Shown here: one piece after another, positions 1,223 to 60,800 of the stretch | How positions within the stretch are numbered: position 1 is the first letter of the stretch | How the letters are laid out: every line of letters starts with the position of its first letter | Origin: an uncultured Acidobacteriota bacterium | GTDB lineage: Bacteria > Acidobacteriota > Vicinamibacteria > Vicinamibacterales > UBA2999 | Length of the DNA stretch: 64,000 nt | Reading direction: 5' to 3' | Assembly: GCA_963741135.1 (NCBI GenBank) | Contig: CAVUHC010000002.1 | Coordinates: 255,413 to 319,412 of the forward strand | Notes under the pieces: model-generated | Database searches by the model: none | The model's input: only the letters and a program-made list of their open reading frames with translations | What the model was told of the DNA's origin: nothing | Made by a program: the position numbers and the translations under genes

Positions 1223-1307
1223 ACCCTAACCCCTAACTCCCCTAACCCCTTCCCCCTAACCCCTTCCCTCTAACCCCCAACCCCTTCCCCCTAACCCCTT
1301 CCCCCTG
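1223..1307. repeat. One-armed tandem heptamer tract (CCCTAAC/CCCTTCC)n
   Basis: About 12 consecutive 7-nt units read directly, in the divergent intergenic region between the ATPase and the ABC operon. Confidence 0.9.
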
Positions 1308-1482
1308 TTCTTTGAAGACTCTCTTCCTATCTTCCCGGATCCCGGCCGATTGACGCCTCCCGACGTCCGAAAGGCGGGTCCAAAAGGACGACCGGGTCCT
1401 TTGGGACCCGGCGTACGTATAATCGGCTGTTAAATAACCGGATTTTCTACACGTTGACGAGCAGGACACCGGAGGAACTCAA

Positions 1483-2456
1483 TTGATCGAGGTTCAACAC
1501 CTCACGAAGCGGTACGGCCCCGTGACCGCGGTGAACGACGTGAGCTTTACGGTCGAGCGGGGCGAGATTCTCGGCTTTCTTGGTCCGAACGGCGCCGGCA
1601 AGACGACGACGATGCGCGTGCTGACCGGCTACATGCCGCCAAGCGAGGGCAAGGCGATCGTGGCCGGTTACGACGTGTTCGAACAGCCAATCGAAGCCAA
1701 GCGCCGCACCGGCTACCTCCCGGAAACACCTCCGCTCTATCCCGACATGACGGTGCGCGAATACCTGACGTTCGTGGCGCGGATCAAGGGTGTGCCGCGG
1801 AAAGAGTCGCAAGGCGCGCATCGGCGAGATGATGAAGAAGACGCGCATCGACGACGTTGCGGATCGCCATTGCGGGAAGCTGTCAAAGGGGTATCGTCAG
1901 CGTGTCGGACTTGCGCAGGCGCTGCTCCACAACCCTGATGTCCTCATCCTCGACGAGCCGACCGCCGGCCTCGACCCGAAGCAGATCATCGAAACGCGGC
2001 AGCTCATCAAGGGGCTCGCCGGCGACCACACGATCATTCTCAGCACGCACATCCTGCCGGAAGTCAGCCAGACCTGTCAGCGCGTCGTCATCATCAACAA
2101 AGGCAAGGTCGTCGCCGTCGACACGCCCGACAACCTGACGTCGCGGCTGCGTGGCTCCGAAACGATGTATCTCCAGGTGGACGCGCAGGGCGCCGATGCG
2201 GCGGCGGTCCTGCAGCGCGTGGCGGGCGTGACGCGTGTGGCCGTCGCGGACACAAAAGCAGCAGATCGTCGGCTTCGAGATCGACAGCGAGACGGGGCAT
2301 GATGTCCGGCGCGAGCTCGCGGCGGCGGTTGTCGGCCGCGGCTGGGGGCTGCTCGAGATGCGCCCGATGCGCATGAGCCTCGAGGAGATCTTCCTGCACG
2401 TGACGACCGAAGACGTGGCCGCGCCGCCGGCCGTTGCGGAGGCTTCGCATGAGTAA
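1483..2456 (+). pseudogene. ABC transporter ATP-binding protein (ABC-2/GldA-like); two frame breaks, likely indels
   Basis: Walker A GPNGAGKTT in ORF 1483-1938; signature LSKGYRQR and Walker B LILDEP in ORF 1790-2302; C-terminus in ORF 2235-2456. The breaks coincide with A-runs at 1801-1803 and 2254-2257. TTG start preceded by GGAGGA. Confidence 0.9.
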
Positions 2457-3213
2457 CATCCTGGCGCTTGCGCACAAAGAGGTGAAGTCCGCCTTCTCGA
2501 CGCCGATTGCCTACGTCGTGATTGGCTTCTTTGCGCTGCTCTGGGGCTGGTTCTTCTGGGTCAGCCTCATTTACTTCAACCAGCAGAGCCTGCAGTTCGC
2601 CGGGCCGGAGGGAGGGGGCGCGAATATCAACCAGCAACTGATACGCCCGCTGTTTCTGAACGCCAGCGTCATCCTGCTGTTCGTGCTGCCGCTGATCACG
2701 ATGCGGACCTACTCCGAGGAAAAGCGCTCGGGCACGATCGAGCTGCTCCTCACATCGCCGCTGACCGATTTCCAGATCATCATGGGCAAGTTTCTCGGCG
2801 CGATGGTGCTGTACGCCGCCATGCTGCTCGTCACGATGATTCACATGGCGCTGCTGTTCTCGTACGGCAACCCCGAATGGCGCCCGGTGATCACCGGCTA
2901 CCTCGGACTGCTGCTGATGGGCGGCTGCTTCATCTCGGTCGGACTGCTCATCTCGAGCCTGACGAAGAACCAGATCGTGTCCGGGATGGTGACCTTCGCG
3001 GTGTTCCTGCTCCTGTGGGTGATCAACTGGCTCGCGTCGTTTACCGGACCGACGACACAGAGCGTGCTGAACTACCTGTCGATTACCGAGCATTTCGACG
3101 ACTTCACAAAAGGGATTCTCGATACGAAGCACCTGGTCTACTACTTCAGCGTCATCTCGTTCGGGCTGTTCCTGACGGCTCGATCGGTCGACACCGAACG
3201 CTGGAAGGGTTGA
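2449..3213 (+). CDS. ABC-2 type transporter permease (GldF-like)
   Basis: Intact ORF with multiple TM helices. The ATG at 2449 overlaps the upstream stop. Gene order ATPase-permease-GldG-like-DUF4340. Confidence 0.85.
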   Translation: MSNILALAHKEVKSAFSTPIAYVVIGFFALLWGWFFWVSLIYFNQQSLQFAGPEGGGANINQQLIRPLFLNASVILLFVLPLITMRTYSEEKRSGTIELLLTSPLTDFQIIMGKFLGAMVLYAAMLLVTMIHMALLFSYGNPEWRPVITGYLGLLLMGGCFISVGLLISSLTKNQIVSGMVTFAVFLLLWVINWLASFTGPTTQSVLNYLSITEHFDDFTKGILDTKHLVYYFSVISFGLFLTARSVDTERWKG

Positions 3214-3217
3214 GGCG

Positions 3218-6132: not shown

Positions 6133-6137
6133 CTCTG

Positions 6138-6262
6138 TAATTCAAGATGCAAAATGCAAAATGCAAACACTGCGTTGTTTGCAGGACCGGGGTGGAGGTC
6201 GCCACGCCTTCCACCCCGTTTTCGCGTACGCGCGTGGTGTTTGCATTTTGCATTTTGAATTG
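6138..6262. repeat. Palindromic element with (GCAAAAT)n arms, copy 1
   Basis: Left arm 6138-6170 and right arm 6237-6262 are reverse complements. Same family as 57601-57706. Confidence 0.9.
6188..6224 (+). terminator. Putative intrinsic terminator at the centre of the palindrome
   Basis: Stem CGGGGTGGAGG / CCTTCCACCCCG followed by GTTTTCG, downstream of the DUF4340 gene. Confidence 0.5.
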
Positions 6263-7733
6263 TGCATTGCTGAGCGCCACCAGCTGCGCCAAATCACCTC
6301 CCCAGCTCCCATCAGCTCCTCAAGTCGATCCGACCAGGCAACTGGCAACCGACATTGCCGCCGCAACCCAGATGCCGGGTGTGCAACGGGCCACGTGGGG
6401 GATCGCGATACAGTCGCTGACGAACAACGAGCGCCTGTTCGATCTGAACGCACGTACGCTGATGGTGCCCGCGTCGGTCGCGAAGATCGTGAGCGTTGCG
6501 ACGGCGGTGGATGCCGTTGGATGGGATTACCGGTTCCAGACGACGCTTCGCGCTGTCGGTGCGGTGTCGGATGGCGTGCTGCAGGGTGAGCTGCTCATTG
6601 TCGGCTCCGGCGATCCGGCGATAGCCGGGCGGGGCGGTGACGATCTCTCGACCTGGGTGGCCGCGTTGAAGGCGATCGGCATCCGACGTGTCGACGGCCG
6701 CGTCATCGGCGTCGACGACGAGCTCGAGGAGCCGAGGCCCGGTTTCGCGTGGTCGTGGGACGACCTTGGATACCCGACGGGCGCGATCTTCGGTGCGTTG
6801 AATCTCGCAGAGAACAAACTGACGGTGACCGTTGCGCCTGGAGCCGCTGCTGGTTCGCCAACCGTGGTCAGCGTCGACCACGAAGCGCAGGACGTCCCGC
6901 TCGTGAATCGCAGCGTCACCGGCGCCGCCGGGAGCCAGCTACTGCTGTGGCCCGAGATTCGACCCGGTGAGACGACGCTGACGATTGCAGGTGCGATTCC
7001 TGCCGGAGCGAGGCCCGCAACGCTGGCCGTCGCTGCGGGAAATCCGACCGTGTGGTTCGCTCGTGTGCTGCGCCGGAGACTCATCGACGCCGGCATCGAC
7101 GTCACCGGCAGTGCCGTCGACGCCGACGACATCGACGTGGGGACCGGCTTCAGTCGGCCCAATCCAGACTCCGGCGCGATCCTCTACACGTACCGCTCGC
7201 ATCCTCTGTCGGAGATCGTGCAGCCGATGCTCAAGGAAAGCATCAACCTGTACGGCGAGGCCGTGGAGCGGCTCAACGCTTCCGGGCCACCTCCGCGCAC
7301 GAACGACCAGGCGCTCGAGGGGATGAAGCAGCGGCTGCTGATGTGGGGCGTCCCCGCAAACGGATCTCAGCTCGTTGACGGATCGGGATTGTCGCGGCGC
7401 GACGTGCTCGCGGCCGATACGTTGCTCACCGTCCTGGTGCGGATGTACGACCCCGCCGGAACGTCGCCGTGGATGACGGCGCTGCCGATTGCGGGCGTCG
7501 ACGGTACGCTGGCGGCGCGGATGAAAGGGACTCCCGCTGAAAACAACGTGCGGGCGAAGACTGGAACGATGTCGAACGTACGCTCTCTCACAGGCTACGT
7601 CCGGGCGCGCGACGGCGAAACGCTTGCCTTTGTCATCATGGTGAACAACTTCGAAGGCACCGGCGCGCAGGCAGTCGCCGCCATCGACGCCATCGCCGTC
7701 CGGCTCGCATCGTTCAGCCGGGCAAATCCGTAG
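6234..7733 (+). CDS. dacB: D-alanyl-D-alanine carboxypeptidase/endopeptidase (PBP4, peptidase S13)
   Basis: SxxK (PASVAKI), DGSGLSR and KTGT motifs. Probable GTG start at 6234/6237 gives the lipoprotein-like signal FAFCILNCALLSATSC. The longer track ORF (6147) reads through the repeat. Confidence 0.85.
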   Translation: MVFAFCILNCALLSATSCAKSPPQLPSAPQVDPTRQLATDIAAATQMPGVQRATWGIAIQSLTNNERLFDLNARTLMVPASVAKIVSVATAVDAVGWDYRFQTTLRAVGAVSDGVLQGELLIVGSGDPAIAGRGGDDLSTWVAALKAIGIRRVDGRVIGVDDELEEPRPGFAWSWDDLGYPTGAIFGALNLAENKLTVTVAPGAAAGSPTVVSVDHEAQDVPLVNRSVTGAAGSQLLLWPEIRPGETTLTIAGAIPAGARPATLAVAAGNPTVWFARVLRRRLIDAGIDVTGSAVDADDIDVGTGFSRPNPDSGAILYTYRSHPLSEIVQPMLKESINLYGEAVERLNASGPPPRTNDQALEGMKQRLLMWGVPANGSQLVDGSGLSRRDVLAADTLLTVLVRMYDPAGTSPWMTALPIAGVDGTLAARMKGTPAENNVRAKTGTMSNVRSLTGYVRARDGETLAFVIMVNNFEGTGAQAVAAIDAIAVRLASFSRANP

Positions 7734-7793: not shown

Positions 7794-8432
7794 GTGCCCA
7801 GCGCTGTCGTCGTACGCGAGCTCAGCGAGGCGGATCTTCAGTCTGCCGTCGGAATCGTCGCGCGCGGGATGCGAGACAACCCGCTCCACATCGCGGCACT
7901 CGGCGCCGATGCGGAGGTTCGCGGCAATCGATTGATCCGTATGTTCGGCGTGGCGCTGCCGTTGATCTTCTCCAAGGGCGTTCTGCTTGGCGGGTTTCAG
8001 GACGGCACGCTCGTCGGAATTGCCGGCATGGTGCCGCCGGGGAAATGCCAGCCATCGATGAAGGAGAGGATCACCCTCGTCCCGCGCATATTCCCTGCGG
8101 TCGGCGGGGGCGCGTTCGCGCGCGTCGGGCGATGGATGGGGACGTGGGCGCAACACGACCCCGCGGAGCCCCATTGGCACCTCGGACCGGTTGCAGTCGA
8201 GGCGCATTTGCAGCGGCGAGGCATCGGGAGCCTGCTCATGAGCGAGTCTTGCGCGCGTCTGGATCGCGCGCGCGCCGTCGGCTATCTCGAAACGGACAAA
8301 CCGACGAGCGTGACCTTTTACGAACGGTTTGGATTCGAGACGATCGGCTCGGGGCCCGTGCTGAACACACCGAACTGGTTCATGCGGCGGGCTTGCTTGG
8401 AAAATCCCATTGGAGTTTACCTTACTGACTGA
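7794..8432 (+). CDS. GNAT family N-acetyltransferase
   Basis: Acetyl-CoA binding motif region LQRRGIGSLLM and C-terminal YERFGFE. Confidence 0.75.
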   Translation: MPSAVVVRELSEADLQSAVGIVARGMRDNPLHIAALGADAEVRGNRLIRMFGVALPLIFSKGVLLGGFQDGTLVGIAGMVPPGKCQPSMKERITLVPRIFPAVGGGAFARVGRWMGTWAQHDPAEPHWHLGPVAVEAHLQRRGIGSLLMSESCARLDRARAVGYLETDKPTSVTFYERFGFETIGSGPVLNTPNWFMRRACLENPIGVYLTD

Positions 8433-11400
8433 GAGGCGCCAGTCGAGGTGCTGTGGCACCTGCCCCGGACCCGGGCATCACCGTGAGCTCGGTGGTCTCA
8501 CCGTTCTTCACTTCAACCGATTGCCTTCGCTCACCGAAGGCCGCATCCTTGACGACCACTTCACGCGTGCCGATCGCAACGGGCATGGCGTCGAGCGGCG
8601 CGACGCCGGCACGGTCCCCTTCAATCCACACTTCCGCTCCCGGCGTTGTCGTCACGTGCACCCTGCCTGACGGCAGCGCAAGGGTGTGGGCCGTGACCTG
8701 CCCGGGACGAATCGTCAGCGCGACCGTCGATCGGAAGTTGAATCGCTCGCTGACAAACTCGATCTTGTGACTGCCGGCGTTGAGCAGGAGCTGCCCGTCC
8801 TCGGTGGTACCGATACGGCGGCCATCGGCGAACAGGTCCATCGGGATTCGCGAGAACGCCAGAAGAAAGCCGCCTACGGCTGCGCCCGGCGCCTGAGCAC
8901 CGGGGCCGGGGGTGGCGGGACGATTCGTGGTCGCTGAGCTCTGGCGACGCGCCGCGCGCTCCGCCGTGACCAGTGCGTTCTTGACGGCCGGCGCCGCGGC
9001 AACGGCAGCATCGGCGGCCTTCGTCGCCGCCTCGCCCGCGGTGTCAGCCCACTTGGAGGAGGTCTTCACGGTGGATGAAAACATGCCGGGGAGCCAGATC
9101 ACACCGGCGCCGATCACGATCGCGAGGACGATCGCACCAGCGACCAGATCCCACCGGACGCGATCCCACTGGATGTGCGGAATACGCGACACGAAGGATG
9201 GGTCAGCCGGCTGCTCCAATGGCTCTGTGTGGACCTGATCCGGCCCACTCGCCTGCCGGCTCTCCGCCTCGGCGCGGAGCATGGCCACTTCAGCGGCGAG
9301 TCGTAGGTTTGCCTGGGCGCGAATGCGCTCGGTTTCAGACGCGAGTGCCTTTTCCGCGGCGGCTCGAGCGGTCTCCGCCGCCTCGATCCGGATCCGATTC
9401 ACGTCGAGCGCGGCCTGCTGGTGCGCGTGGCGGGCCTGTTCTGCCTCACCACGAGCGCTGGCAAGCTCCGCCTCGAGGCGGGCCTCGTTTTCGGACTGTG
9501 CCCGGGATCCGCGCGCCAGCTGCACATCGCTCTCGGCGCGCGCGCGCGCGACCGCAGACTTGATCTGTGTGTCGGCGTCAGCCTTGACGCGCGCAATCTC
9601 GGCAGCGAGAACTCGCGCCGCTTGCGCTTCAGCCGCAAGGCGCGCTTCTGTGACCGCCGCCGCGCGCGCCGCGTCGGCTTCGGCTTTGACCCGCGCGATC
9701 TCCGCTTCGCGCGCATCCCCCGCCTCCAACTCGGCCGTCAGGAGCGCTTCTTCAATGGCCCCTGCCCGCGCAGCCTCGGCCTCGGTCTTCATCCGCGCGA
9801 TCTTGTTTTCTGCGTCTCGGGCCCGCGCGACGGCGGCTTCCGCCGCCTTCTGTGCCTCTTTGACCGCGGCGGTGCGCAACGCGGCGGCTTCGGTGCGCGC
9901 GAGGGCAACCGCGGCCTGAACCTGCGCCTCGGTGTCCGCCTTGACGCGCGCAATCTCGGCTTCGAACACGCGCCTCGCATCCCCTTCAGCGGAAAGGCGC
10001 GCTTCCTCGACTGCCGCCGCCCGAACCGCATCGGTTTCGGCGTGCGTGCGTGCGACCGCGGCCTCGACTTGCACCTCGGTGTCCGCGTTGACACGCGCAA
10101 TCTCGGTTTCAAGAATGCGCTTCGCTTTTCCTTCAGCGGCAAGGCGCGCTTCGTCGACCGCCGCCGCGCGAACCGCGTCGGCCTCGGCGTGCGCGTGTGT
10201 GACCGCGGCCTGGACCTGCACGTCGGCCTCGGCCTTGACGCGCGCAATCTCGGCTTCGAGAACGCGCATCGCTTCCGTTTCAACGACGCGGCGCGCGTCG
10301 TCGACTGCCGCCGCGCGAACCGCGTCGGCCTCGGCGTGCGCGCGCGTGACCGCGGCCTGGACCTGCACGTCGGCCTCGGCCTTGACGCGCGCAATCTCGG
10401 CTTCGAGAACGCGCATCGCTTCCGTTTCAGCGTCACGGCGCGCGTCGTCGACTGCCGCCGCGCGAACGGCGTCAGCCTCGGCGTGCGCGCGTGCGACCGC
10501 GGCCTGGACCTGCACGTCGGCCTCGGCCTTGACGCGCGCAATCTCGGCTTCGAGAACGCTCATCGCTTCCGTTTCACCGGAAAGGCGCGCTTCGTCGACT
10601 GCCGCTGCGCGAACCACGTCGGCCTCGGCGTGCGCGCGTGCGACCGAGGCCTGGACCCGCAGGTCGGCGTCGGCCTTGACGCGCGCAATCTCGGACTCGA
10701 GAACGCGCGTCGCTTTTCTTTCAGCGGCAAGGCGCGCTTCGTCGACTGCCGCCGCGCGAACCGCGTCGGCCTCAGCGTGCGCGTGTGCGACGGCGGCCTG
10801 GACCCGCACGTCGGCGTCGGCCCTGACGCGCGCAATCTCGGACTCGAGAACGCGCGTCGCTTCCGTTTCGGCGACACGGCGCGCGTCGTCGACTGCCGCC
10901 GCGCGAACCGCGTCAGCCTCGGCGTGCGCGCGTGCGAGCGCGGCCTGAACCCGCACGTCGGCGTCGGCCTTGACGCGCGTCATCTCGGAATCGAGAACGC
11001 GCATCGCTTCCGTTTCACCGGCAAGGCGCGCCTCTTCGACCGCCACCCCACGCGCCGCGTCGGCTTCTGCTCTGACCCGCGCGATCTCCATGTCGCGCGA
11101 ACGCATCGCTTCCGACTCGGTCGTCGTGCGCGCTTCCTCGACGGCCGCCGCCCGCGCAGCACCGGCCTCGGCCTTGATCCGCACGATCGCTGCTTCTGCT
11201 TCTCGTGCCCGCGCTTCGGCGGCTTCCGCCGCCCTCTGCGCCTCTTCGACCGCGGCGGTGAGTGATGCGTCGGCTTCGGTGCGCGCGCGCGCCAGCCGTT
11301 CGTCTCCCTCCCGCTCGGCCTGCGCTTGCGTCTCTCCAAGCTTCGCGGTCAGCGCCTCCTCCGCCTCGGTTCGCACGCGTGCCACTTCCGATGCGAGCTG

Positions 11401-12144
11401 CTGCTCCGCCTCTTTCCTTACCTGTTCGAGCTCCGCAGCCAGCGCCTCGCGTGCCGCGGCTTCCGCTCCGGCGCGCGCATCGCTCACCGCCGACTCGCGC
11501 TGCGTCGCCGCCTCACTTTCGATCCGCGCGAGGTCCTGCTTGCGCTGCTCCTCGGCCTCGTCGGCCATGCGTGCAAGCTCGCGCGCCCGTTGGAGTGCGC
11601 CTTCTGCCTGTACCCGCTCGAGCTCGGTCTTCAGTCGGAATTCGACCTCGGCCTCGATCAGCGAGACATCGGCCGAACGCATACCGGCCTCGACGGGGGC
11701 AACCGGGGGGACTTCCGCGACCCGCTTTGCCCGCGCGTTCTCTGCCGCGGTGAGCAACGTGTCGACCGTCCTTTCGAACGACGCCACCTCGGTGCTGGTG
11801 TTTTCGGCACCCTTCCTTCGAAACGGATTCGGAAAGCCGGATTTCTGTGGTGGTACTGCGTTCGCCAGCGACGGGATGTCGAGCGTGCGGACCTGTGCCG
11901 AGTCCGCCAGAGAGCGCAAATGCGTGCCGATCTTGACCCGCTGGTCCTGTGGGACCTCTCGGCCGAACAGGACAAGGTCAGGCACGCGCTGATTCATCGC
12001 CACGATCGCCGCATAAGCGGACGTGACGATGACGAGCTCGGCGCCGAGTTTCGTGTGAACGACGGAACCGAGCGGATCCGCGTGGGAGGAATCCGGCTCG
12101 ATCGCCAGCACTAGGTTCATATTGCGGAACATTGAGCGGGGCAA
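8422..12144 (-). CDS. 1240-aa membrane protein: receiver-like N-terminus, about 900-aa Ala/Glu/Arg coiled coil with 49-aa tandem repeats, one TM helix, C-terminal PEGA-like domains
   Basis: Intact ORF. The N-terminus resembles a CheY fold but has PDLVLFG where the phospho-acceptor D is expected. TM helix VAGAIVLAIVIGAGVIWLPGMF. The C-terminus has two beta-rich PEGA-like modules. Confidence 0.7.
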   Translation of the reverse strand: MPRSMFRNMNLVLAIEPDSSHADPLGSVVHTKLGAELVIVTSAYAAIVAMNQRVPDLVLFGREVPQDQRVKIGTHLRSLADSAQVRTLDIPSLANAVPPQKSGFPNPFRRKGAENTSTEVASFERTVDTLLTAAENARAKRVAEVPPVAPVEAGMRSADVSLIEAEVEFRLKTELERVQAEGALQRARELARMADEAEEQRKQDLARIESEAATQRESAVSDARAGAEAAAREALAAELEQVRKEAEQQLASEVARVRTEAEEALTAKLGETQAQAEREGDERLARARTEADASLTAAVEEAQRAAEAAEARAREAEAAIVRIKAEAGAARAAAVEEARTTTESEAMRSRDMEIARVRAEADAARGVAVEEARLAGETEAMRVLDSEMTRVKADADVRVQAALARAHAEADAVRAAAVDDARRVAETEATRVLESEIARVRADADVRVQAAVAHAHAEADAVRAAAVDEARLAAERKATRVLESEIARVKADADLRVQASVARAHAEADVVRAAAVDEARLSGETEAMSVLEAEIARVKAEADVQVQAAVARAHAEADAVRAAAVDDARRDAETEAMRVLEAEIARVKAEADVQVQAAVTRAHAEADAVRAAAVDDARRVVETEAMRVLEAEIARVKAEADVQVQAAVTHAHAEADAVRAAAVDEARLAAEGKAKRILETEIARVNADTEVQVEAAVARTHAETDAVRAAAVEEARLSAEGDARRVFEAEIARVKADTEAQVQAAVALARTEAAALRTAAVKEAQKAAEAAVARARDAENKIARMKTEAEAARAGAIEEALLTAELEAGDAREAEIARVKAEADAARAAAVTEARLAAEAQAARVLAAEIARVKADADTQIKSAVARARAESDVQLARGSRAQSENEARLEAELASARGEAEQARHAHQQAALDVNRIRIEAAETARAAAEKALASETERIRAQANLRLAAEVAMLRAEAESRQASGPDQVHTEPLEQPADPSFVSRIPHIQWDRVRWDLVAGAIVLAIVIGAGVIWLPGMFSSTVKTSSKWADTAGEAATKAADAAVAAAPAVKNALVTAERAARRQSSATTNRPATPGPGAQAPGAAVGGFLLAFSRIPMDLFADGRRIGTTEDGQLLLNAGSHKIEFVSERFNFRSTVALTIRPGQVTAHTLALPSGRVHVTTTPGAEVWIEGDRAGVAPLDAMPVAIGTREVVVKDAAFGERRQSVEVKNGETTELTVMPGSGAGATAPRLAPLSQ
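9939..11115. repeat. 147-bp tandem repeat, at least 8 copies, inside the 1240-aa gene
   Basis: The CCTTGACGCGCGCAATCTCGG anchor (a few copies carry 1-2 substitutions) recurs at 9939, 10086, 10233, 10380, 10527, 10674, 10821 and 10968, exactly 147 nt apart. Adjacent central copies look roughly 90-95% identical by eye. Degenerate copies flank the array. Confidence 0.95.
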
Positions 12145-16148: not shown

Positions 16149-16150
16149 CT

Positions 16151-47857: not shown

Positions 47858-47865
47858 TGAATTTC

Positions 47866-47951
47866 AACCACGAAGATCACGATAGACGCGAAGGACACGA
47901 ACCCATTATTAGGTTTACGTGATCTTCGGGTTTTTCGTGAACTTCGTGGTT
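47866..47951. repeat. Hairpin of CACGAAG-type units
   Basis: AACCACGAAGATCACG...CGTGAACTTCGTGGTT. The right arm encodes the C-terminal tail of the next gene. Confidence 0.8.
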
Positions 47952-48589: not shown

Positions 48590-48654
48590 TACGAGAATCG
48601 AAATCGTACTGGGGTGACGACCTGCATTTCGATTCTCGTAATGACTCCCGACCC
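48576..48654. repeat. Hairpin element GGGGTCGGGA(T/G)TCATTACGAGAATCGAAAT, copy 1
   Basis: 29-nt arms and a 21-nt loop. The arms are near-identical to copy 2 but the loop is unrelated. Confidence 0.9.
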
Positions 48655-49119: not shown

Positions 49120-49125
49120 CCGGAC

Positions 49126-49158
49126 AACTCCCAATTCCCAATCTCCAACTCCCAAGGT
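49126..49158. repeat. One-armed heptamer tract (CAACTCC/CAATTCC)
   Basis: CAACTCCCAATTCCCAATCTCCAACTCCCAAGG. Confidence 0.8.
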
Positions 49159-49164: not shown

Positions 49165-49290
49165 TCCGCGATTTCTTCTCGGACTTCCGCAGTTTTGTTC
49201 GGGCCTTCCGCCGTTTTGCTTGCGCCTTCCGCGGGTTCTTTCGGGCTGCCGCGGTTGTGTTTTGGACGTCCGCGATTCCTTCCGCGACTG
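49165..49290. repeat. 21-bp periodic array (about 6 units, TCCGCnGTTTTGyTyGGGcct)
   Basis: TCCGC/GCCGC anchors at 49165, 49186, 49207, 49228, about 49248 and 49269, in a divergent intergenic region. Confidence 0.8.
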
Positions 49291-49417
49291 CCGTGGTCTT
49301 TTTCGTCGATCTTTCAGAACTTTCATAACTTTTTCAGGCCGCAGATCACGACTTCCATGGGCCCGCGGATCGAGCATAGGCCTCACGAGGCAATTCCGCC
49401 TCGAGGAGGAAACGGAA

Positions 49418-50134
49418 ATGAGAACGATCGAAAAACGTCAATACAAGATGCTCACGCGGGTGCGCGACTTCGGAAACACACATCGTGACGTGTTTCCGGA
49501 ATCAAGTCGCGCCGGGCAGCAATTCGGAGTAGTCGCCGAAGCGGTGAAGCAGTTGAGCGAGCAGGCGATGGCCAACACCGCGGCGGCGGGGGAACGAGCG
49601 AGCACAAAGGCCAAGGGGCAGCGGGCGCTGATCGACCGGCTCGAGGCGATCAGCCGCACGGCGCGAGTCATTGCCGAAGGTACGCCTGGTCTGGAGGACA
49701 GATTCCATCTTCCAGACCCGCAGACGGACGAAGCCTTGCTCACGGCGGGGCGCGTGTTCGCACGCGATGCCGCCGGGTTCAAGAGCGAGTTCGTCGGGCA
49801 CGGGATGCCGGAGACATTTCTCGCGGACCTCGACGACCTCGTCGCAACATTCGAGAAGGCGACTCGCTATCGGACTGCGGGACGGAACGATCAGACCGCG
49901 GCGAGGGCCAGCATCGAGGCGGCGTTCGAGTCCGGCATGGAGGCCGTGCGAAAGCTCGATGTCATCGTCGCCAATCGTCTGCATGACGATGCCGTGATGA
50001 TGGCCGTGTGGGAACGGGAACGGCGGGTCGGCTATCCGAAGAGCGGCGTTGCACCGGCGACGTCCGCGGCGGAACCAGCCGTCCCGTCCGTTGTCGCACC
50101 AACGGCACCCGTTAGCGCACCCCAGACGACGTAA
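49418..50134 (+). CDS. Hypothetical protein (238 aa, mostly helical; Ala/Pro-rich tail)
   Basis: ATG preceded by GAGGAGGA. No family recognised. Confidence 0.5.
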   Translation: MRTIEKRQYKMLTRVRDFGNTHRDVFPESSRAGQQFGVVAEAVKQLSEQAMANTAAAGERASTKAKGQRALIDRLEAISRTARVIAEGTPGLEDRFHLPDPQTDEALLTAGRVFARDAAGFKSEFVGHGMPETFLADLDDLVATFEKATRYRTAGRNDQTAARASIEAAFESGMEAVRKLDVIVANRLHDDAVMMAVWERERRVGYPKSGVAPATSAAEPAVPSVVAPTAPVSAPQTT

Positions 50135-50157
50135 GGTATGGATACCCTGGTTACCAA

Positions 50158-50238
50158 GGGGTCGGGAGTCATTACGAGAAGCGAAATGGCGGTCGGCGTT
50201 GCAACACGATTTCGATTCTCGTAATGACTCCCGACCCC
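50158..50238. repeat. Hairpin element GGGGTCGGGAGTCATTACGAGAAGCGAAAT, copy 2
   Basis: See 48576-48654. Confidence 0.9.
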
Positions 50239-50261
50239 GTTACACGGCGCTCCCACACTCA

Positions 50262-50302
50262 TTTGGAACTTGGAACTTGGGATTTGGGTTTTGGGATTTA
50301 CC
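50262..50302. repeat. Heptamer tract (TTGGAAC/TTGGGAT)n, copy 1
   Basis: Direct-orientation partner at 52610-52655. Confidence 0.85.
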
Positions 50303-52594
50303 TCACCGGCCCCTGTAGTCGATCGCGAATTCGTCCTTGGGAAACAGATCACGATTGACGTCCACCAGGGCCTGCCGATCGAAGTCGGGACCGTAGACTC
50401 GTGGGTCCCGTAGTAGATACGGAGCAAGAAGTTTCTCGATATCGATCTCCCCTCGGCGGTAATAGTCACGCGTAAAAGGCTGCCGCATCCGATCGGCAAT
50501 CGCTGGGCGATCGAGCGACAGAGGGATCGTGGTGCCGATCGCCATGTCTTCGAAGACCAGGACGTGCGGAAACACTTTTACGAACGTGTCGACCACCCGC
50601 TGTGTGGGCGTCCACGTGACAGCGAGCCCCTCGGGGTTCAGTCGCTCACGAAGCAGCTCGAAATATTCGACTGAGTACAGGTTGCCGGCGTACGCGCTCG
50701 TTGGGCGTAGCGCATCCGCCTCGATCACGTCATAACGCCGTGCGCCTTTTCTGATGAGCATCCTCCCGTCGGTGAACCAATGCTGCAGGCGCAGGTCTCC
50801 AAGCAGCATCCGAAGCGCCGGGTACATCCGTTGTTGATCCAGCAGCCGCAGCGTCTCGAGCTCTGGCGCAATGATTTCGATGCTGTCAATGCTCCTTGTC
50901 TCGGATCTGCCACCGATGCCGAACACCGTGTCGCCCGAGCCCAGCCCGATGACCGCAACCGCGACGGGCTTCGGATGGAGCATCGCTGGCAGAGCGCCCA
51001 GCACGGTATGCAAACCGCCGTACGGCAGGATGCTCTGCCCGAGGCCGTTTGCATGCACGATCGTTTCGGCGCTGTTGGGCGTGGTCTTGAGCACTGACAA
51101 CCCTGATCCGTCCTCCGCTTCGATGATTTGGTCTGGCGCGGCGCCGTGCAGTCTGGCCCAAAGTGTGGACTCGGATGGCGTGAGGTACGCAACAGCGCAA
51201 ACGAAACCGATTGCAGCCGCCCGTCGCCAGCGCGCACCACGACCGGGTTGTACGTACCCATAGAGCCAGATGAACATGGCGGAACACAACACAAGCAGTT
51301 GAAGCGTGCCGTCCGACCCGAACACGTCGAGGAGTACGAGGCCGGTCAGCATGGCCCCGACCATCGACCCGACGATGTTGGCGGTTTGCAGCCAGCCGAC
51401 GCGTCGGCCGAGCGTCGCGAGATCGGTCTGCACGGCGCGCTGAAGGTGACCGAAGCTTAAGCCCATCATCAGCGTCGGCAGGCCCATTAGTCCGATCGGC
51501 ACTGCCACGTAGAGAGCGAAAAAGAGTCCTCGACCGGAGCCGACGACCTCCTCACTCGACAGGGTTTCGTACCGGCCGAGGTACTGCCAGAGCGGGTCCG
51601 CCATATCGATCTGGTGGACGAACATGACAAACACGGTAAGTAAAATCACGGCAACGCTCGGGATGGCGGCCTGAAGCAGCAAGAACCCCCGTGCCGGCTG
51701 CCATGACCGCGCGAGCCGGCTACTGGCCACGAGCGATCCGAGGCCGACGCCGCCCAGATACACCCCAAGCAGATGGCCGAAGGTGAACGAATTCGCCTTC
51801 AAAATCACACCGAGAATCCGAAACCACACGATCTCGAGCGACAGCGCGATGAAGCCTGACAGCGCATAGATGGCAATCCAGGTCGACAGGCTGAGACGGT
51901 GCTGATGGCCGCTATCGAGGACTGGAACCAGCGCTTCCGGAGTTGCGACTTCGGCGACGGCTGACCAGCCTCGAACGAGGCGGGGGGCGACGAGCAGCAC
52001 ACCGAGCGCGCAAGTGGCGCTGAGCGTGGCGCCGACACGAACGCTGGTGACCAGGTCGACGGTGCGAAACAGAATTGCGGCGGCAAAAAGCGACCCGCAG
52101 GCCGCCCCAAGCGTATTCCACCCGTACAGAACGGGGACCCACCGCGCAGGCTGGCGTGCGTCGTGGGTCATCGCCGTGGCCAGCAACGGCAGTGACATCC
52201 CCATGAAAAACGTCGGCCAAAGAGTGACTCCGAAGATGATCGCCGCCATCGCGGCGCGGGGCATTGCCCAGGACCCGAGTCCCAGGTACAAGACGTCGTA
52301 GTAGATGGTCGCGCTGAAAACCGCGAACACGGCGATCGCCAGCTCACATGACGCGAACGCAAGGAGGCGACCGCGTGCGCCGAGTCGATCGGCAAGATAA
52401 CCGCCCGCCAAGCTTCCGAAGCCGAGTCCGCCCATGAACGCCGACACGATGATCGTGACGGAGTACACGTCGGCGCCACCGAAGAAGCTGAGCATGCGCT
52501 GCCAGACGATCTGATACAGCAGGGCGGTAAAGCCGCTCACGAAGAAGACGAACAGGAACGCGACACTCGCACTACTCACAGAGCCGGCCCCCAT
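50303..52594 (-). CDS. Fused MFS-like membrane domain / spermidine-synthase-like protein
   Basis: Intact 763 aa. N-terminal polytopic domain (FVSGFTALLYQIVWQR) and C-terminal aminopropyltransferase-like domain (VIGLGSGDT). Confidence 0.75.
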   Translation of the reverse strand: MGAGSVSSASVAFLFVFFVSGFTALLYQIVWQRMLSFFGGADVYSVTIIVSAFMGGLGFGSLAGGYLADRLGARGRLLAFASCELAIAVFAVFSATIYYDVLYLGLGSWAMPRAAMAAIIFGVTLWPTFFMGMSLPLLATAMTHDARQPARWVPVLYGWNTLGAACGSLFAAAILFRTVDLVTSVRVGATLSATCALGVLLVAPRLVRGWSAVAEVATPEALVPVLDSGHQHRLSLSTWIAIYALSGFIALSLEIVWFRILGVILKANSFTFGHLLGVYLGGVGLGSLVASSRLARSWQPARGFLLLQAAIPSVAVILLTVFVMFVHQIDMADPLWQYLGRYETLSSEEVVGSGRGLFFALYVAVPIGLMGLPTLMMGLSFGHLQRAVQTDLATLGRRVGWLQTANIVGSMVGAMLTGLVLLDVFGSDGTLQLLVLCSAMFIWLYGYVQPGRGARWRRAAAIGFVCAVAYLTPSESTLWARLHGAAPDQIIEAEDGSGLSVLKTTPNSAETIVHANGLGQSILPYGGLHTVLGALPAMLHPKPVAVAVIGLGSGDTVFGIGGRSETRSIDSIEIIAPELETLRLLDQQRMYPALRMLLGDLRLQHWFTDGRMLIRKGARRYDVIEADALRPTSAYAGNLYSVEYFELLRERLNPEGLAVTWTPTQRVVDTFVKVFPHVLVFEDMAIGTTIPLSLDRPAIADRMRQPFTRDYYRRGEIDIEKLLAPYLLRDPRVYGPDFDRQALVDVNRDLFPKDEFAIDYRGR

Positions 52595-52609
52595 TTCCGC
52601 ATCCGTGAC

Positions 52610-52655
52610 TGGTCGTTTGGAACTTGGGATTTGGAACTTGGGATTTTGGATTTAC
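52610..52655. repeat. Heptamer tract (TTGGAAC/TTGGGAT)n, copy 2
   Basis: GTTTGGAACTTGGGATTTGGAACTTGGGATTTTGGATTTACG. Confidence 0.85.
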
Positions 52656-55295: not shown

Positions 55296-55890
55296 CCGTG
55301 GGTGGGAGGACGGTACTGGCGCCAGGTGCGGGGCTGGCGCCTGTCAGGGATCGGGGATCCGGGATCGGGATCCGGGGATCCTGATCCCTGATCCCTGATC
55401 CCTGATCCCCGATCCCGGCCGGCGCCATCGAATGCATATGGCAGATCGCGACGGCCAGCGCATCGGCGGCGTCATGTGGCGTTGGCGCGGCGGCGAGACC
55501 GAGGAGCAGCTTCACCATCTGCGCCACCTGGTGCTTCTCGGCGCGACCGTACCCGACGACCGCGCGCTTGATTTCAGCTGGCGTGTACTCGACCACCTCG
55601 CAGCCCGCTTCGATCGCGGCAAGCATCGCCACGCCACGCGCGTGACCGAGCTTCAACGCGCTGCGGACGTTCGTCGCGTGGAAGAGATTCTCGATGGCGA
55701 CGCAGTCAGGGTGAAGCGACGCAAGGAGCACGGAGAGCTCGGCGTGAATCCGGGCAAGGCGGTGTGGAAACGAGTCGGCCTGGCGCGCGGTAATTGCGCC
55801 GCAGGCTACGAGGTGATGCCGGCGTCCATCCGTCTCCACGCAGCCGTAACCGGTGCGTTCGGAGCCAGGATCGATGCCGAAGATTCTCAC
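55177..55890 (-). CDS. ruvC: Holliday junction resolvase RuvC; C-terminus reads through a repeat, true stop probably ATGA-coupled to ruvA at about 55292
   Basis: MRIFGIDPGSERTGYG...HDAADALAVAICH. As written the ORF overlaps ruvA by 118 nt. A +1 frame ends in GGATGATT, overlapping the ruvA ATG. Confidence 0.9.
   Translation of the reverse strand: MRIFGIDPGSERTGYGCVETDGRRHHLVACGAITARQADSFPHRLARIHAELSVLLASLHPDCVAIENLFHATNVRSALKLGHARGVAMLAAIEAGCEVVEYTPAEIKRAVVGYGRAEKHQVAQMVKLLLGLAAAPTPHDAADALAVAICHMHSMAPAGIGDQGSGIRDQDPRIPIPDPRSLTGASPAPGASTVLPPTDDCVSSRTGSRQVSEPDHPRRERRRLRSPRAPVHLLRDR
55344..55417. repeat. Palindrome of (GGGATCN)n heptamers inside the ruvC 3' end
   Basis: CAGGGATCGGGGATCCGGGATCGGGATCCGGGGATC|CTGATCCCTGATCCCTGATCCCTGATCCCCGATCCCGG. 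Confidence 0.9.
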
Positions 55891-57583: not shown

Positions 57584-57600
57584 GTAATGCTTTAGCCATG

Positions 57601-57706
57601 TAATTCAAAATGCAAATTCAAAATGCAAAATCCAAACAGAACATGTGCGCATCAACCGATCGTTCGCATCAGCAGTGTTTGCATTTTGAATTTTGCATTT
57701 TGAATT
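57601..57706. repeat. Palindromic element with (GCAAAAT/TTCAAAA)n arms, copy 2
   Basis: Arms at 57601-57638 and 57675-57706. Same family as 6138-6262, with an unrelated centre. Confidence 0.9.
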
Positions 57707-57711
57707 ACGCC

Positions 57712-58440
57712 CTAGTCAGAAACCGCCAATTCGCCCGGAACGATCGGACGTGTGCGCGGGAGGAGACCGCGGCGCGACATGTGGCCAACGATCGCGAGAA
57801 CGCCGACAAATACCGTGAGCTTGATGGCGTCGCCCGCGCGACTGGCGGGCACGACTTTCCACAGCAGCCATAGAATCGGGTGCGCGATCGCGACCGCCCA
57901 GACAGACCCGTAGAAATAGCGTCGCTCGTGTCCCTCTCCCTGTGTCGACCGCTTCACACGGGGGAGGAGTCCGAAGGCACCTAGCGCCCACATGGTGCCC
58001 GCAATCGGAAAGTACGCCGCCTCATACATTTGCTTCAGGCGCCACATGCCAGTGATGAGCGCGTATGCGAGACCGGCGATGTTCAGCAGGGCGAACGCGG
58101 CGACTTCGCCCCACGCCGTCGTGTAGCACACGCGTCGATAGAGCGGGTTCGGCCGATCCTCGGTGAACCTGATGATGTACGGCCGCGGCTCGCATCCCGG
58201 CAGTTTGCCCCGAATGCCCGCGATGCCGGTCGCGACGACCACGCATCCCAGCCAGATCGCGAGCCGCCGATCGAAGCCATGCTCGAACAGATCGAACGTC
58301 AGGGGTCCCGGCGCGATGAAGAACACGAAAATCCAGATCGGCCAGTGGTTGAAGCGGTAATACAGTTTGTTCGAGTGGCGAATCTTCCGCGCCGTGTCCA
58401 GCTCGACGTAGATTGAGTCCGTCTGGAGGGGTTGGTTCAT
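57712..58440 (-). CDS. Hypothetical polytopic membrane protein (242 aa)
   Basis: Intact ORF with about 6 hydrophobic helices. No family recognised. Confidence 0.5.
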   Translation of the reverse strand: MNQPLQTDSIYVELDTARKIRHSNKLYYRFNHWPIWIFVFFIAPGPLTFDLFEHGFDRRLAIWLGCVVVATGIAGIRGKLPGCEPRPYIIRFTEDRPNPLYRRVCYTTAWGEVAAFALLNIAGLAYALITGMWRLKQMYEAAYFPIAGTMWALGAFGLLPRVKRSTQGEGHERRYFYGSVWAVAIAHPILWLLWKVVPASRAGDAIKLTVFVGVLAIVGHMSRRGLLPRTRPIVPGELAVSD

Positions 58441-58497
58441 CAGGGATCAGGGATCGGGGATCAGGGATTCGGGATCCGGGATCCGGGATCGGGATTA
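58441..58497. repeat. One-armed (GGGATCN)n heptamer tract
   Basis: Eight consecutive units filling the intergenic gap. Confidence 0.9.
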
Positions 58498-58501
58498 GGC
58501 A

Positions 58502-59180
58502 TCAGGATACATTACGAATTCGTCCATCCTCGATCATGAGGACGCGATGTGAGGTCGCGCGCGCGAATTCGGCGTCGTGCGTGGCGATGACGATCGGTAC
58601 GGCCCTGCGCCGCGAGCTGGCGCAGCGTTGAAGCCAGCTCGTGACGCCGTGCGGGATCAAGGGATGCGGTCGGCTCGTCCATCAGCAAAAGCGGAGGCTC
58701 GACGGCAATCGCACGGGCAATCGCGACACGCTGCGCTTCTCCACCGGACAATTCGTGCGGCAGTGCTGCCGAGCGGTCGCCAACGCCGAGGCTGACCAGC
58801 AGCTCCTGGGCACGCGCTTCTGCGTCCGCGAGAGGACGTTGCGTCACGTGGACGAGTGCGAGCCACACATTCTTGTGCGCAGTCATGTGGGCAAATAGGT
58901 GGTGGAACTGGAACACCATGCCAACGCGCCGGTGCAGCTCCCGAAGGGTCTGGCCGCGCTGGATGCTCCCCGGCTCCAGCGTCATGCCGTCGAGGACGAT
59001 CGTGCCGGCGCCAATCGGATCGAGTCCCGCGATCGCGCGCAGGATCGTCGTCTTTCCTGCGCCGGATGCACCCATCAGCGCGACGACCTCGCCGCGTGAT
59101 GCGGAAAACGAGATACCCGAGACGATTGGCCGCCCGCTTCGGCGAACCTCGAGCGATGTGACCTCGAGTACCGCGGTCAC
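58502..59180 (-). pseudogene. Amino-acid ABC transporter ATP-binding protein; one frame break near 58610
   Basis: GASGAGKTT, LSGGEAQRVAIARA and LLLMDEP. An alternative frame restores PIVIATHDAEFA...VLMIEDGRI and a TGA at 58502. GTGA overlap with the permease gene. Confidence 0.9.
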
Positions 59181-60680
59181 GCCCGCCGCCATCCGCGCTC
59201 GATGCGCCGCGCGATCCGCGCCAGCGGCAGCGAGAGGGCGAGGTACAGCGCCGCGCACATCACCCCTGGCAAAACCCAACTGCCGATGTTGGCCGCAAAG
59301 ATCGACGTCTGCTTCGTCAGCTCAACGACCGTAATGACCGACACGAGTGAGGTGTCTTTCAACAGCGCCACAAAGTCGTTGGTCATGGGCGCGAGCGCGA
59401 GCCTGAACGCCTGCGGTGCCCGAACAAGGACGAGGATCTGCCGCTGGGTGAATCCGAGCGTGCGCGCGGCATCCAGCTGCCCCTGCGGTACGGCTTCGAG
59501 CGCGCCGCGATAGATTTCGCTTTCGTAGGCGGCGTAGTTCAGTCCGAGGCCGAGCAGCGCCGCCAGGAACGCCGGCAGCTGAATGAAGGGTGCAAGCCCG
59601 AAATACAGGACGAAGAGCTGCAGCAGGAGCGGCGTGCCACGAATCATCTCGACGTAGATCGTCAGCGCCGCCCGCAGTGAGCTGTGCCCATAGATGCGGC
59701 CGCTCGCGATGAGCATGCCGACGCCCACGGCGAGCGACATCGAGAGACAGGACAGCACGACGGTGATCAGCGCGGCGTTCAGAAGCGCAGGAAGATAACG
59801 CCACGCCGCCTCCCACGTGCTCATCGTCTGGCTTCCGGTGGGCGCCAGACTCGAGGGCTCGACGGGAGTCGACGTCGAATCCGCCAGGAGGCGTGCATAC
59901 AAGCGCGGCTGATCCTCGTTCCACACGTTCCAGCGCCTGAAGACCGCCTCGAGCCGTCCGTCGCGCATGGCGCTTCGCAGGATTTCGTTCATCCGGTCGC
60001 GCAACGCCGTCTGGGTGGGCGCGAGAACGCCCACGTAATGTCCGACAGCCAGAGGCTGGGGCTGGTTGAACAGGCTGGTGTCCCTGAGCACGCCGCGCCG
60101 CGCAAGGATGAAATCCAGCACCACCGCATCGACCCGTCCAAGCGCCAGATCGGAATACGGGTGCACGTCGTCTTCGTACGTGACGGGAATGATGCCGTCG
60201 CGAGCCTGGGCGTCGACGAGCAGGTCATAGGCGAGGGTCGCCCCGAGCGTCGCGACGCGGCGGCCGCGAAGATCCGCCAGCGAACGGAACCGATCGCGGT
60301 CGGCGTTGCGGACGGTCAGGATTTCGCGGAACTCGTAGTACGGAATCGTGACCGCGAGGCGAGACCGGCGGGTCGGAGTATCTTCGATGCCGCTGAGTCC
60401 GACATCGAAGTCGCCGCGCGCCGTTGCCGCGTCAAGGGTCGTGAATCCGGTCTGAATAAATCGAGGCACACGGCCAAGTCCGGTGGCGAGAAGGGTGGCG
60501 ACATCGACGTCGAATCCCTCGACACGCGTGGGATCGCCTGGATCGGCTTCAACGAACGGCGCACCTCCCTCGGCGTCGCCGCCCCACCGCAGTTCCTGTG
60601 ACTGGGCCTGTGCGACGGCAGACCGCGGCGAGCGCAAGAAACAGGCCACAGAGACACGAGCGTTGTGGCTCTTTCGCCCG
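59177..60680 (-). pseudogene. Fused amino-acid ABC substrate-binding protein / permease; signal peptide in another frame (break near 60612)
   Basis: SBP domain (FDVDVA...GLSGIEDT) plus a permease with an EAA-like loop (ALEAVPQGQLDAARTLGF). The hydrophobic signal CGLFLALAAV is in ORF 60549-60731. Confidence 0.8.
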
Positions 60681-60727
60681 TGACAACCGCCAGTGTGCGC
60701 ATCGCAGGATGCTTTCGCAAAGACGGG

Positions 60728-60800
60728 CCACGGAGGAACGGAGGCACGGAGATATTCAACGCGAAAAGCCTGCTCCCTGTCTCCGTGTCTCCGTGGCTTG
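60728..60800. repeat. CACGGAGG-family hairpin, copy 3
   Basis: CCACGGAGGAACGGAGGCACGGAG ... CTCCCTGTCTCCGTGTCTCCGTGG. Confidence 0.9.

Follow-up and report, generated by a model that had tools for sequence, protein, structure and literature searches.

The question raised by this locus is why the gaps between its genes should be filled, again and again, with tandem runs of a 7-base unit, commonly paired with an inverted run, when the unit itself changes from gap to gap. The locus is a stretch of 64,000 nucleotides (G+C = 64%), hereafter the window, at positions 255,413 to 319,412 of contig CAVUHC010000002.1 (assembly GCA_963741135.1) of an uncultured Acidobacteriota bacterium. Its proteins most resemble those of uncultured Acidobacteriota in or close to Vicinamibacteria. 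An earlier reading of the letters, made without database searches (the sequence-only reading), had offered two answers: selection on structure, or a generating mechanism such as slippage plus template switching. Comparison with relatives favors the second. The arrays are, on balance, probably long simple-sequence repeats (SSRs) with a unit of 7 bases, at times 8 or 9, which are turned over by a generating process and do not constitute a conserved functional element. Judged by their sequence, they belong to a known class, the heptanucleotide SSRs known as short tandemly repeated repetitive (STRR) sequences and from Xanthomonas: they have at least three head-to-tail copies, an excess of period 7, a mostly non-coding position near the ends of open reading frames (ORFs), and a copy number that varies at a kept site.

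Period-7 arrays and their turnover among relatives

Tandem tracts in the window were located with Tandem Repeats Finder (TRF) and with a self-match scan of our own. TRF returned 26 rows of period 7 (4-11 copies), four of period 8 (CACGGAGG family), and two of period 9. The self-match scan found 19 tracts of period 7, where 20 dinucleotide shuffles averaged 0.3 (maximum 1), together with 16 tracts of period 14 (0.4 in the shuffles) and four of period 8 (0.2); periods 2-6, 9-13, and 15 were at or near background. The period-14 excess arises because unit pairs alternate, for instance GGGGTTA/GGGGGAA or AATTCAA/AATGCAA. Tracts with at least three exact copies numbered 17 for period 7 and no more than one for each other period from 5 to 12; period 4 gave 18, against a high chance background. 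The 441 kb of relatives contained 40 period-7 tracts, six of period 8, and none of period 5, period 7 again being the only one in excess; its density there is 9 per 100 kb vs 30 per 100 kb in the window.

Altogether, the window holds 22 elements from about ten unit families, which cover approximately 1.76 kb (2.7%). An element is called two-armed when the array is accompanied by its reverse complement 2-80 nt away, and 12 elements are of this kind, the other ten or so being one-armed. Long stems are formed by 11 of the 12 two-armed elements (folding free energy, dG, of -40 to -77 kcal/mol; z scores of -4 to -10 against shuffles), whereas single arms range from 0 to -6 kcal/mol with z near 0, and the C-rich strands of one-armed elements are fully unstructured (dG = 0). 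All loci quoted in the sequence-only reading were read again, and its coordinates and units were correct throughout, with TRF agreeing on the places. It had named two outcomes that would speak against it. The first, a period-7 level no higher than in shuffled sequence, is contradicted by the 19 tracts vs 0.3, and the second, an assembly artefact, did not hold, on the basis of independently assembled relatives.

The idea that error-prone sequencing or assembly created the arrays draws on the state of the window itself, in which several conserved genes between 52800 and 58602 have frames broken relative to their orthologues: the ABC ATPase (58594/58602), the methyltransferase (57090/57095), YebC (56269/56273), and FabH (53248/53259 and 52800/52826), in addition to a RuvC linker array of 116 nt where the length in 19 of 19 relatives is a multiple of 3. 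These breaks probably reflect an indel-prone (long-read) assembly, pseudogenes being less likely, and single 6- or 8-base units in the window may therefore be indel errors. The arrays as such are not artefacts, because dozens of independently assembled contigs from other samples bear arrays of this type, frequently in the same places, and among them are contigs whose names (k141_..., NODE_...) point to short-read assemblers; furthermore, the array in QueA is translated in frame and is seen as protein in many database entries. On these sequence comparisons, an artefact is effectively refuted.

About 100 related loci (labelled L...) were compared. A metagenome scan with the 239-aa protein encoded at 57712-58431 gave 80 syntenic loci with 72-85% protein identity, and exact-protein matches added closer relatives, namely, L138-L141, with 91-93% nucleotide identity over 33.4-56.9 kb of the window, and the near-identical strains L128-L137. 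The comparison of copy number across related strains, which had been suggested beforehand, yielded whole-unit differences. Over 2728 nt, L130 and L132 agree at every aligned base and are set apart only by a single 14-nt gap, i.e., two CCCTAAC units, with L128 intermediate in copy number, and the array concerned (43597-43655) has 4, 5, or 6 units in strains separated by 0-7 substitutions over approximately 3 kb. Similarly, the QueA loops of relatives differ by blocks of 7 residues (21 nt), and some are without an insert. Read from these alignments, the whole-unit step of slippage is shown directly. A further one-unit difference, between L101 and L109, was unusable, as L109 stops inside the array.

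The unit itself is replaced at orthologous sites. The gap 5' of the methyltransferase gene holds at least seven unrelated units among the relatives or is absent: an AATGCAA palindrome in the window, L055, L056, L062, L066, and L078; a CCAACTC single arm in L040 and L053; CTGCCGA in L041-L043; an ATGCTCA palindrome in L065 and L075; GGTAATT and GTGATTC palindromes in L101 and L096, respectively; a CACGGAGG palindrome in L068; and no gap in L048, L074, and L077. The gap at 60.7 kb contains CACGGAGG in the window, an ACAGGTT palindrome in L041, L045, and L053, and none in L040. In several cases, the units run into sequence that was there before. The right arm of L065/L075, (TTGAGCA)n, continues into the ancestral gene start xTGAGCGAAGG, which is also found in the array-less L074, L077, L100, and L121. 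Likewise, (CCCGAAT)n leader arrays finish in CCCGATG, and array-less relatives read CCCGATG (L046, L054) or TCCGATG (L043) at the same start codon. The yebC leader, with its conserved -10 element and GGAG, was never found with an array among the relatives.

Arm number and presence also turn over fast. Of the window and L138, only one has an element at 34.6, 38.7, and 46.9 kb; the last of these indels takes in non-array flanks, and at 38689-38819, L138 has GC-rich hairpins in place of the element. The G arm at 41.9 kb has 5 units in the window vs approximately 20 in L138, the 33.8-kb array has one arm in the window but two in L138, and where the window has the multi-unit 9-base palindrome 47863-47954, L138 has a hairpin of one unit. 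The CAACTCC array at 49125-49157 is the left arm of a two-armed element in L138, and the right arm of the L138 element is the orthologue of the array at 52613-52655. At the RuvC linker, the two arms read GGGATCN in the window and L043, and GGGATTC in L138, L140, and L141; elsewhere among the relatives, this site carries GGGATTC palindromes, single arms, or GC-rich hairpins, and its length is a multiple of 3 in each of the 19 relatives mentioned above.

The GC-rich hairpins are an observation of their own. They resemble repetitive extragenic palindromic (REP) sequences (GGCCGGCTTTAGCCGGCC, GGCCGACCTTCAGGTCGGCC) and stand at the RuvC-linker and ftsH 3' spacer sites, where the window has heptamer palindromes; they were seen in L050, L065, L068, L074, L081, L090, and L138 and are translated in frame in RuvC. 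Two other candidates were set aside. A genome-wide concerted change of unit (GATCCC in the window vs GAATCCC in L040/L041 at three sites) was dropped because L075 and L138 mix both unit types, and an excess of two-copy 7-base duplications (99 observed vs 56 expected), considered as a signature of mutational bias, was confounded by the arrays.

Taken as long SSRs, the arrays would arise as follows. An array begins from a short local sequence and grows or shrinks by replication slippage in whole-unit steps, which the above comparisons show; a mutated unit would then spread along its arm by slippage, as the homogeneity within arms suggests. An inverted copy would form beside the array or around an existing hairpin, and the arms would be kept alike by intrastrand template switching or conversion. 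We infer inverted duplication and conversion between arms, most simply by intrastrand template switching at the hairpin, from the coupling of the arms, since they mirror each other in the order of variant units (TTC and TGC variants come in the same order in the AATGCAA arms at 57600-57708) and since the RuvC-linker arms changed unit together. Arrays would persist where length is unconstrained, i.e., in cistron spacers, in leaders without a conserved ribosome-binding site, at 3' ends around terminators, and in disordered protein loops, where only 21-base steps (three units) preserve the frame. Their consequences would be incidental or modulatory: two-armed arrays may give strong RNA or DNA hairpins, C-rich single arms may give structure-free leaders, G-rich arms could form quadruplexes, and arrays may act as hot spots for insertion and replacement.

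Between the two answers offered beforehand, selection on the stem as the main cause is not supported. Arms are imperfect and can be unequal (approximately 20 vs 7 units in L138), the two arms of an element have been homogenised separately (for example, GAAGGTC vs GAACTTC at 38689-38819), and elements are gained and lost among 92%-identical relatives; the unequal arms and their separate homogenisation indicate that selection for a perfect stem is weak. The generating mechanism gains support from the exact 7-base steps between otherwise identical strains, from the units that run into ancestral local sequence, from the joint change of unit in both arms of a palindrome, and from arrays in protein loops, where RNA structure is no obvious target of selection. 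Unit polymorphism, local seeding, fast turnover, and tolerance fit slippage and are hard to reconcile with a conserved element or a classical transposon.

The elements and their gene context

The 22 elements are given below with their positions in the window; the gene context is taken from Pfam scans of the window ORFs and from synteny with annotated contigs.

1224-1303: one-armed, approximately 11 units of CCCTAAC/CCCTTCC (GGGGTTA family), dG 0; divergent gap between an HMA-domain gene (start 1212) and an ABC ATPase gene.
6133-6274: two-armed AATGCAA/AATTCAA, arms 6136-6170 and 6237-6274, dG -76.5, z -8.8; between the stop of a DUF4340 gene and a peptidase S13 gene.
15416-15506: two-armed GTGATTG/CGATTCG, z -6.7; entire gap from queE stop (15507-15509) to queC start (15413-15415), without a Shine-Dalgarno motif.
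16149-16235: two-armed GGGATTC; takes up the divergent gap between queE start (16148) and DUF72 gene start (16248).
17902-17944: 9-base array, GAACCCCCT x4.8; 3' tail of an HhH-GPD glycosylase ORF.
31036-31130: two-armed CAACTCC/GGAGTTG, z -4.4; from aldolase gene stop to the start of a bacterial microcompartment (BMC) shell gene.
32008-32125: two-armed, 8-base unit CACGGAGG, z -6.7; between a TPR gene and the aldolase gene.
33767-33802: one-armed TTGGGAG; two-armed at the orthologous L138 site.
36010-36062: small, weak two-armed CACGGAGG, z -1.5.
38689-38819: two-armed GAAGGTC/GAACTTC, z -8; surrounds the intrinsic terminator of ftsH.
41929-42040: two-armed GGGGTTA/GGGGGAA, z -9; adjoins tRNA-Met (41839-41915).
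42986-43063: G-rich arm of the GGGGTTA family; 5' of a 23S-rRNA-intervening-sequence-protein-like (IVP-like) gene, with 43597-43655 as its inverted partner.
43597-43655: CCCTAAC arm; convergent gap between the stops of the IVP-like gene and QueA, the QueA stop codon TAG forming part of the first CCCTAAC unit.
44427-44512: adjacent arrays of GGATCCC x4 and CAACTCC x6 (sense); inside the QueA reading frame, coding for a variable loop, QLPTSNSQPPTPNS...PDPGSPIPDP.
47863-47954: two-armed, 9-base unit CACGAAGNN, z -9.1; from the stop of a 192-215-aa gene to the start of a LigD Prim-Pol gene.
49125-49157: one-armed CAACTCC; at the start of a DUF4112 gene.
50258-50300: one-armed TTGGAAC/TTGGGAT; just 3' of the stop codon of a 763-aa gene; a direct copy, approximately 85% identical, of 52613-52655.
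52613-52655: one-armed TTGGAAC/TTGGGAT; from fabH stop to the start of the 763-aa gene.
55344-55418: two-armed GGGATCN, z -9.5; inside the C-terminal linker of RuvC, with the catalytic core on one side and the conserved tail RTWRQYRPP on the other.
57600-57708: two-armed AATGCAA/AATTCAA, z -7.7; from the stop of the 239-aa gene to the methyltransferase start.
58439-58506: one-armed GGGATCN, approximately 10 units, C-rich in the mRNA sense; from the -10-like TGTATCCT to the ATG of the 239-aa gene, without a Shine-Dalgarno motif.
60721-60803: two-armed, 8-base unit CACGGAGG, z -7.4; from the stop of a sigma-like gene to the start of an SBP/permease gene.

The earlier statement that such elements fill intergenic gaps in all gene orientations holds for 19 of the 22, many of them 0-13 nt from a start or stop. 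The gaps are co-directional at 15416-15506 (queE-queC), 31036-31130 (BMC operon), 57600-57708, 58439-58506, and 60721-60803, divergent at 1224-1303, 16149-16235, and 42986-43063, and convergent at 43597-43655; several two-armed elements take up precisely the interval between a stop codon and the following start codon, and several arrays abut an ATG without a Shine-Dalgarno motif. It does not hold for the three elements in tolerant coding segments, i.e., in QueA (44427-44512), the RuvC linker (55344-55418), and the tail of the HhH-GPD ORF (17902-17944). Of two canonical terminators said to be enclosed, the one within 38689-38819 was confirmed: the ftsH terminator (38751-38772, minus strand) is the top terminator-like match of the scan. 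The other, the GC-rich hairpin 6188-6224 at the centre of 6133-6274, is followed by TTTT only and was not called. An intrinsic terminator was thus found only at the centre of 38689-38819, and the arms themselves are without following T runs. Rfam covariance models matched tRNA-Met alone in the window and none of the elements.

The neighbors of the elements are unrelated housekeeping genes, and phase variation does not fit as a role, since the coding arrays stay in frame in all relatives and the genes beside them are of this housekeeping kind, not the surface or restriction genes typical of it. A more general possibility, which we regard as rather unlikely, is that the arrays are selected cis-acting elements, such as leaders for translation without a Shine-Dalgarno motif, hairpins between cistrons that act as RNase III sites or as stabilisers, extended terminators, G-quadruplex switches, or sites for a protein with a footprint of approximately 7 bases (for example, ribosomal protein S1 or a cold-shock protein). 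The leaders speak for it, in that arrays abut the starts of queC, queE, and the 239-aa gene where no Shine-Dalgarno motif is present, as reported likewise for TAACTGA repeats in Beggiatoaceae and for Nostoc. The exact stop-to-start extent of several two-armed elements, their strong stems (z -4 to -10), the occupancy of the methyltransferase gap by one family across distant relatives, and the presence of similar units in several phyla point the same way. Among one-armed arrays within 60 nt 5' of a start, the sense strand is C-rich in 12 of 18, many of them orthologous copies; this orientation bias is a weak trend only, as the cases are not independent. By a sequence criterion, about 13 arrays (GGGGTTA, GGGAGTT, GGGATCN, GGGATTC) have at least four G3 tracts at 7-base spacing, and such units form G-quadruplexes in vitro (PMC4692102). 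The AATGCAA, GTGATTG, GAAGGTC, and CACGAAG families have no such tracts, and AATGCAA, GTGATTG, and GAAGGTC cannot form quadruplexes because they have no G tract. The case for selected elements is weakened by differences, among 92%-identical relatives as well as at a single orthologous gap, in the unit, in the number of arms, and in whether an element is there at all, by arms that are unequal and mismatched, by the occurrence of the same arrays in protein loops, by the unrelated housekeeping genes at their flanks, and by work in Xanthomonas that found no regulatory role (PMC4692102).

Other features of the window were noted as well. The element at 31036-31130 adjoins a bacterial microcompartment cluster (28684-31027) with a BMC shell protein and EutN/CcmL pentamer proteins; the class II aldolase gene (31188-31922) is next to this cluster, and heptamer elements stand between its genes. 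At approximately 57584-57610, a 16-nt duplication (ATTACATGGCT...) makes a 7-codon mini-ORF just before the methyltransferase start. A longer tandem repeat of 147 nt (49 residues; 8 copies, 87% identity) occupies 9880-11064 within a 1240-aa PEGA-domain ORF on the minus strand (8422-12144).

Shared ends, dispersal, and gene-bracketing arrays

Members of one family at unlinked loci have more in common than their unit. Non-periodic end sequences are shared in the families GGGGTTA (GGGCTGTG), GGAGTTG (CCTTGGGAG...GTTGACGG), CACGGAGG (GCCACGGAG), TTGGAAC (TTTGGAACTTGG...GATTTAC), and AATGCAA (GTAATTCAA...AAACACTG), and two AATGCAA arms 51 kb apart (6136, 57708) are identical at 36 of 38 positions. 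Unit families also recur at other sites of other genomes: CACGGAGG in L068, GGAGTTG in L043, L050, L053, and L138, and TTGGAAC in L040. The sequence-only reading had held that copies of a family share arms around unrelated centres. The centres are indeed unrelated (2 to approximately 530 nt), but the sharing extends beyond the unit of the arms to these ends. Its further view, that the word changes here and sets the elements apart from sequence-conserving REP or miniature inverted-repeat transposable element (MITE) families, has to be revised, as unit families conserve their end sequences and the architecture is that of known heptamer SSRs.

Genes are found between arrays in two places. The IVP-like gene (similar to 23S-rRNA-intervening-sequence or bAvd-like four-helix-bundle proteins; 43178-43564, plus strand) lies between the inverted GGGGTTA arms, and in L122 and L123, both gene and arms are missing between QueA and the next gene. 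A TA target-site duplication, which would suggest an IS630-like element, was ambiguous because TA belongs to the unit and the flanks cannot be aligned with the empty site. The second place is a 3.4-kb segment, 49171-52623, absent from L138, which has a CCAACTC arm and a TTGGGAT arm 21 nt apart at this site. The segment comprises a gene (49418-50134), a palindromic repeat, and the 763-aa spermidine-synthase-like gene, which is flanked by direct array copies and whose best match among species-representative genomes is only 61%. The arrangement looks like the insertion of a gene at an array. A 21-nt tandem repeat (3.8 copies, 49184-49261) lies upstream of gene 49418-50134. The palindromic repeat is a separate, non-heptamer family of approximately 85-90 nt with arms GGGGTCGGGAGTCATTACGAGAAnCGAAAT, present at 48570-48660 and 50158-50238; the first copy is absent from the orthologous L138 site, and GGGGTCGGGA copies occur in L118.

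Shared ends and dispersed families would be at home in a model in which the arms are copy-pasted elements with defined ends, similar to MITE, REP, or small dispersed repeat (SDR) sequences, that insert singly or as inverted pairs on either side of whatever the target site holds, while slippage merely alters the copies after insertion. This model is also favored by the two-armed element nested within another in L138, by clean presence or absence among 92%-identical relatives, by the IVP-like gene between inverted arms that is missing in L122/L123, and by the separate conventional palindromic family, which shows presence and absence in the same genome. We nevertheless hold it to be unlikely. No target-site duplication or other flanking direct repeat surrounds any two-armed element, no internal sequence is conserved, and the centres of a family are unrelated. 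A single arm forms no stem (dG 0 to -6) and hence is without the hairpin that REP-associated tyrosine transposase (RAYT) or IS200-type enzymes need, and neither the window ORFs that were scanned nor the Pfam-annotated syntenic contigs yielded a transposase or Y1/RAYT domain. Moreover, units run into ancestral local sequence, the 46.9-kb indel includes non-array flanks, and the unrelated units across relatives are too many for a few families.

The comparison with the named classes leads to the same point. REP and REPIN sequences are mobilised by RAYT transposases (Bertels and Rainey, 2011, PMC3116915), and the window arrays are like them in being abundant, short, extragenic repeats that stand between genes singly or as inverted hairpin doublets. 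Each REP, however, is by itself imperfectly palindromic over 20-40 nt and has a conserved head, and the spacer of a REPIN is maintained; the arms in the window are tandem heptamers without self-complementarity, and their spacers are not conserved. Similarly, terminal inverted arms, presence or absence between relatives, and nested copies recall MITEs, which differ from the arrays by their target-site duplication, conserved interior, and cognate transposase, whereas the arms here vary in length by 7-base steps.

Several observations weigh against the favored reading of the arrays as SSRs written in place. Slippage gives no reason for a period of 7 and not of 5, 6, or 8. A pure in-place origin predicts neither the shared non-periodic ends nor the families at other sites, from which it follows that some copying or conversion between loci must occur. 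In L138 (2650-2740, corresponding to window 36010-36062), a complete GGAGTTG two-armed element sits inside the loop of a CACGGAG element, which looks like an insertion. The AATGCAA element is recognisable at one site across relatives with 75-80% protein identity, and this persistence suggests constraint or continuing conversion. Units similar to those of the window recur outside its phylum, TTTTGAA in Nostoc and GGGNATC in both Nostoc and Xanthomonas, and template switching is a step that we infer only. Two-armed heptamer arrays beside start codons also occur in a Chloroflexota locus.

Some of these points would be met by a dedicated process with a 7-base register, common to distant phyla, that writes and rewrites arrays, with the arrays serving as recombination sites for gene capture. 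Such a process could reside in a particular polymerase or repair pathway, or else in a factor acting in trans by which arms are copied from locus to locus; the 763-aa gene with its direct array copies and the IVP-like gene with its inverted arms are candidates for captured genes. We judge such a process to be quite improbable, and if true, it would explain the exclusive period, the shared non-periodic ends, and the same units in Acidobacteriota, cyanobacteria, and Xanthomonas.

Relation to known heptamer repeats

Heptamer SSRs are over-represented in many bacteria (Rehm et al., 2015, PMC4692102), and that paper cites Mrazek (2007) with a polymerase-footprint hypothesis. Xanthomonas genomes have approximately 185 GGGAATC arrays each, with 2-26 units per array, mostly non-coding and near ORF ends, of which 70-75 pairs per genome are inverted and could form stem-loops; their length and sequence vary between species, and the site is usually kept (PMC4692102). 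In Nostoc, the unit is GGGGA(C/T)T, and inverted pairs are few (PMC4692102). Of the units in the window, GGGATTC and GGGATCN fit the GGGANTN pattern of that paper. In contrast to Xanthomonas and Nostoc, where one unit dominates a genome, about ten unrelated units occur here within 64 kb, and the lineage of the window, in another phylum, further shows local seeding, whole-unit polymorphism, and in-frame protein arrays.

STRR sequences are dispersed, intergenic, and variable enough for strain fingerprinting. Mazel and colleagues are said to have described them in 1990 as heptamers of heterocystous cyanobacteria with several families per genome. They differ from the window arrays in being direct arrays of AT-rich genomes. 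Very small mobile Nostoc repeats associated with tandem heptamer tracts were reportedly described by Elhai and co-workers in 2008.

Direct repeats of TAACTGA are known from Beggiatoaceae, cyanobacteria, and Bacteroidetes (MacGregor, 2015, PMC4679880). They lie a few bases 5' of start codons, in place of the Shine-Dalgarno region and beside unrelated genes, with ribosomal protein S1, Csp, and CsrA as suggested binding partners (PMC4679880). They comprise one unit in one orientation, with a single inverted case in 170 sets (PMC4679880), whereas the window arrays have many units in both orientations and half are hairpin-paired. In addition to these, heptamer-derived satellites have been found in Chloroflexus (Subirana and Messeguer, PMC6749651).

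What the present locus adds to this class is a new host phylum, Acidobacteriota (Vicinamibacteria-like), an unusually large number of unit families, a high share of hairpin-paired arrays, and comparative dynamics. The heptamer excess of large GC-rich bacterial genomes has been noted since 2007. Because soil metagenomes are rich in this lineage, sequences are already at hand for many strains over a graded series of distances, and their comparison amounts to a natural time series of array birth, pairing, loss, replacement, and in-frame growth, through which the choice of 7 as the period can be approached. In practical terms, the arrays break assemblies, make variable protein loops, and mark sites of gene insertion.

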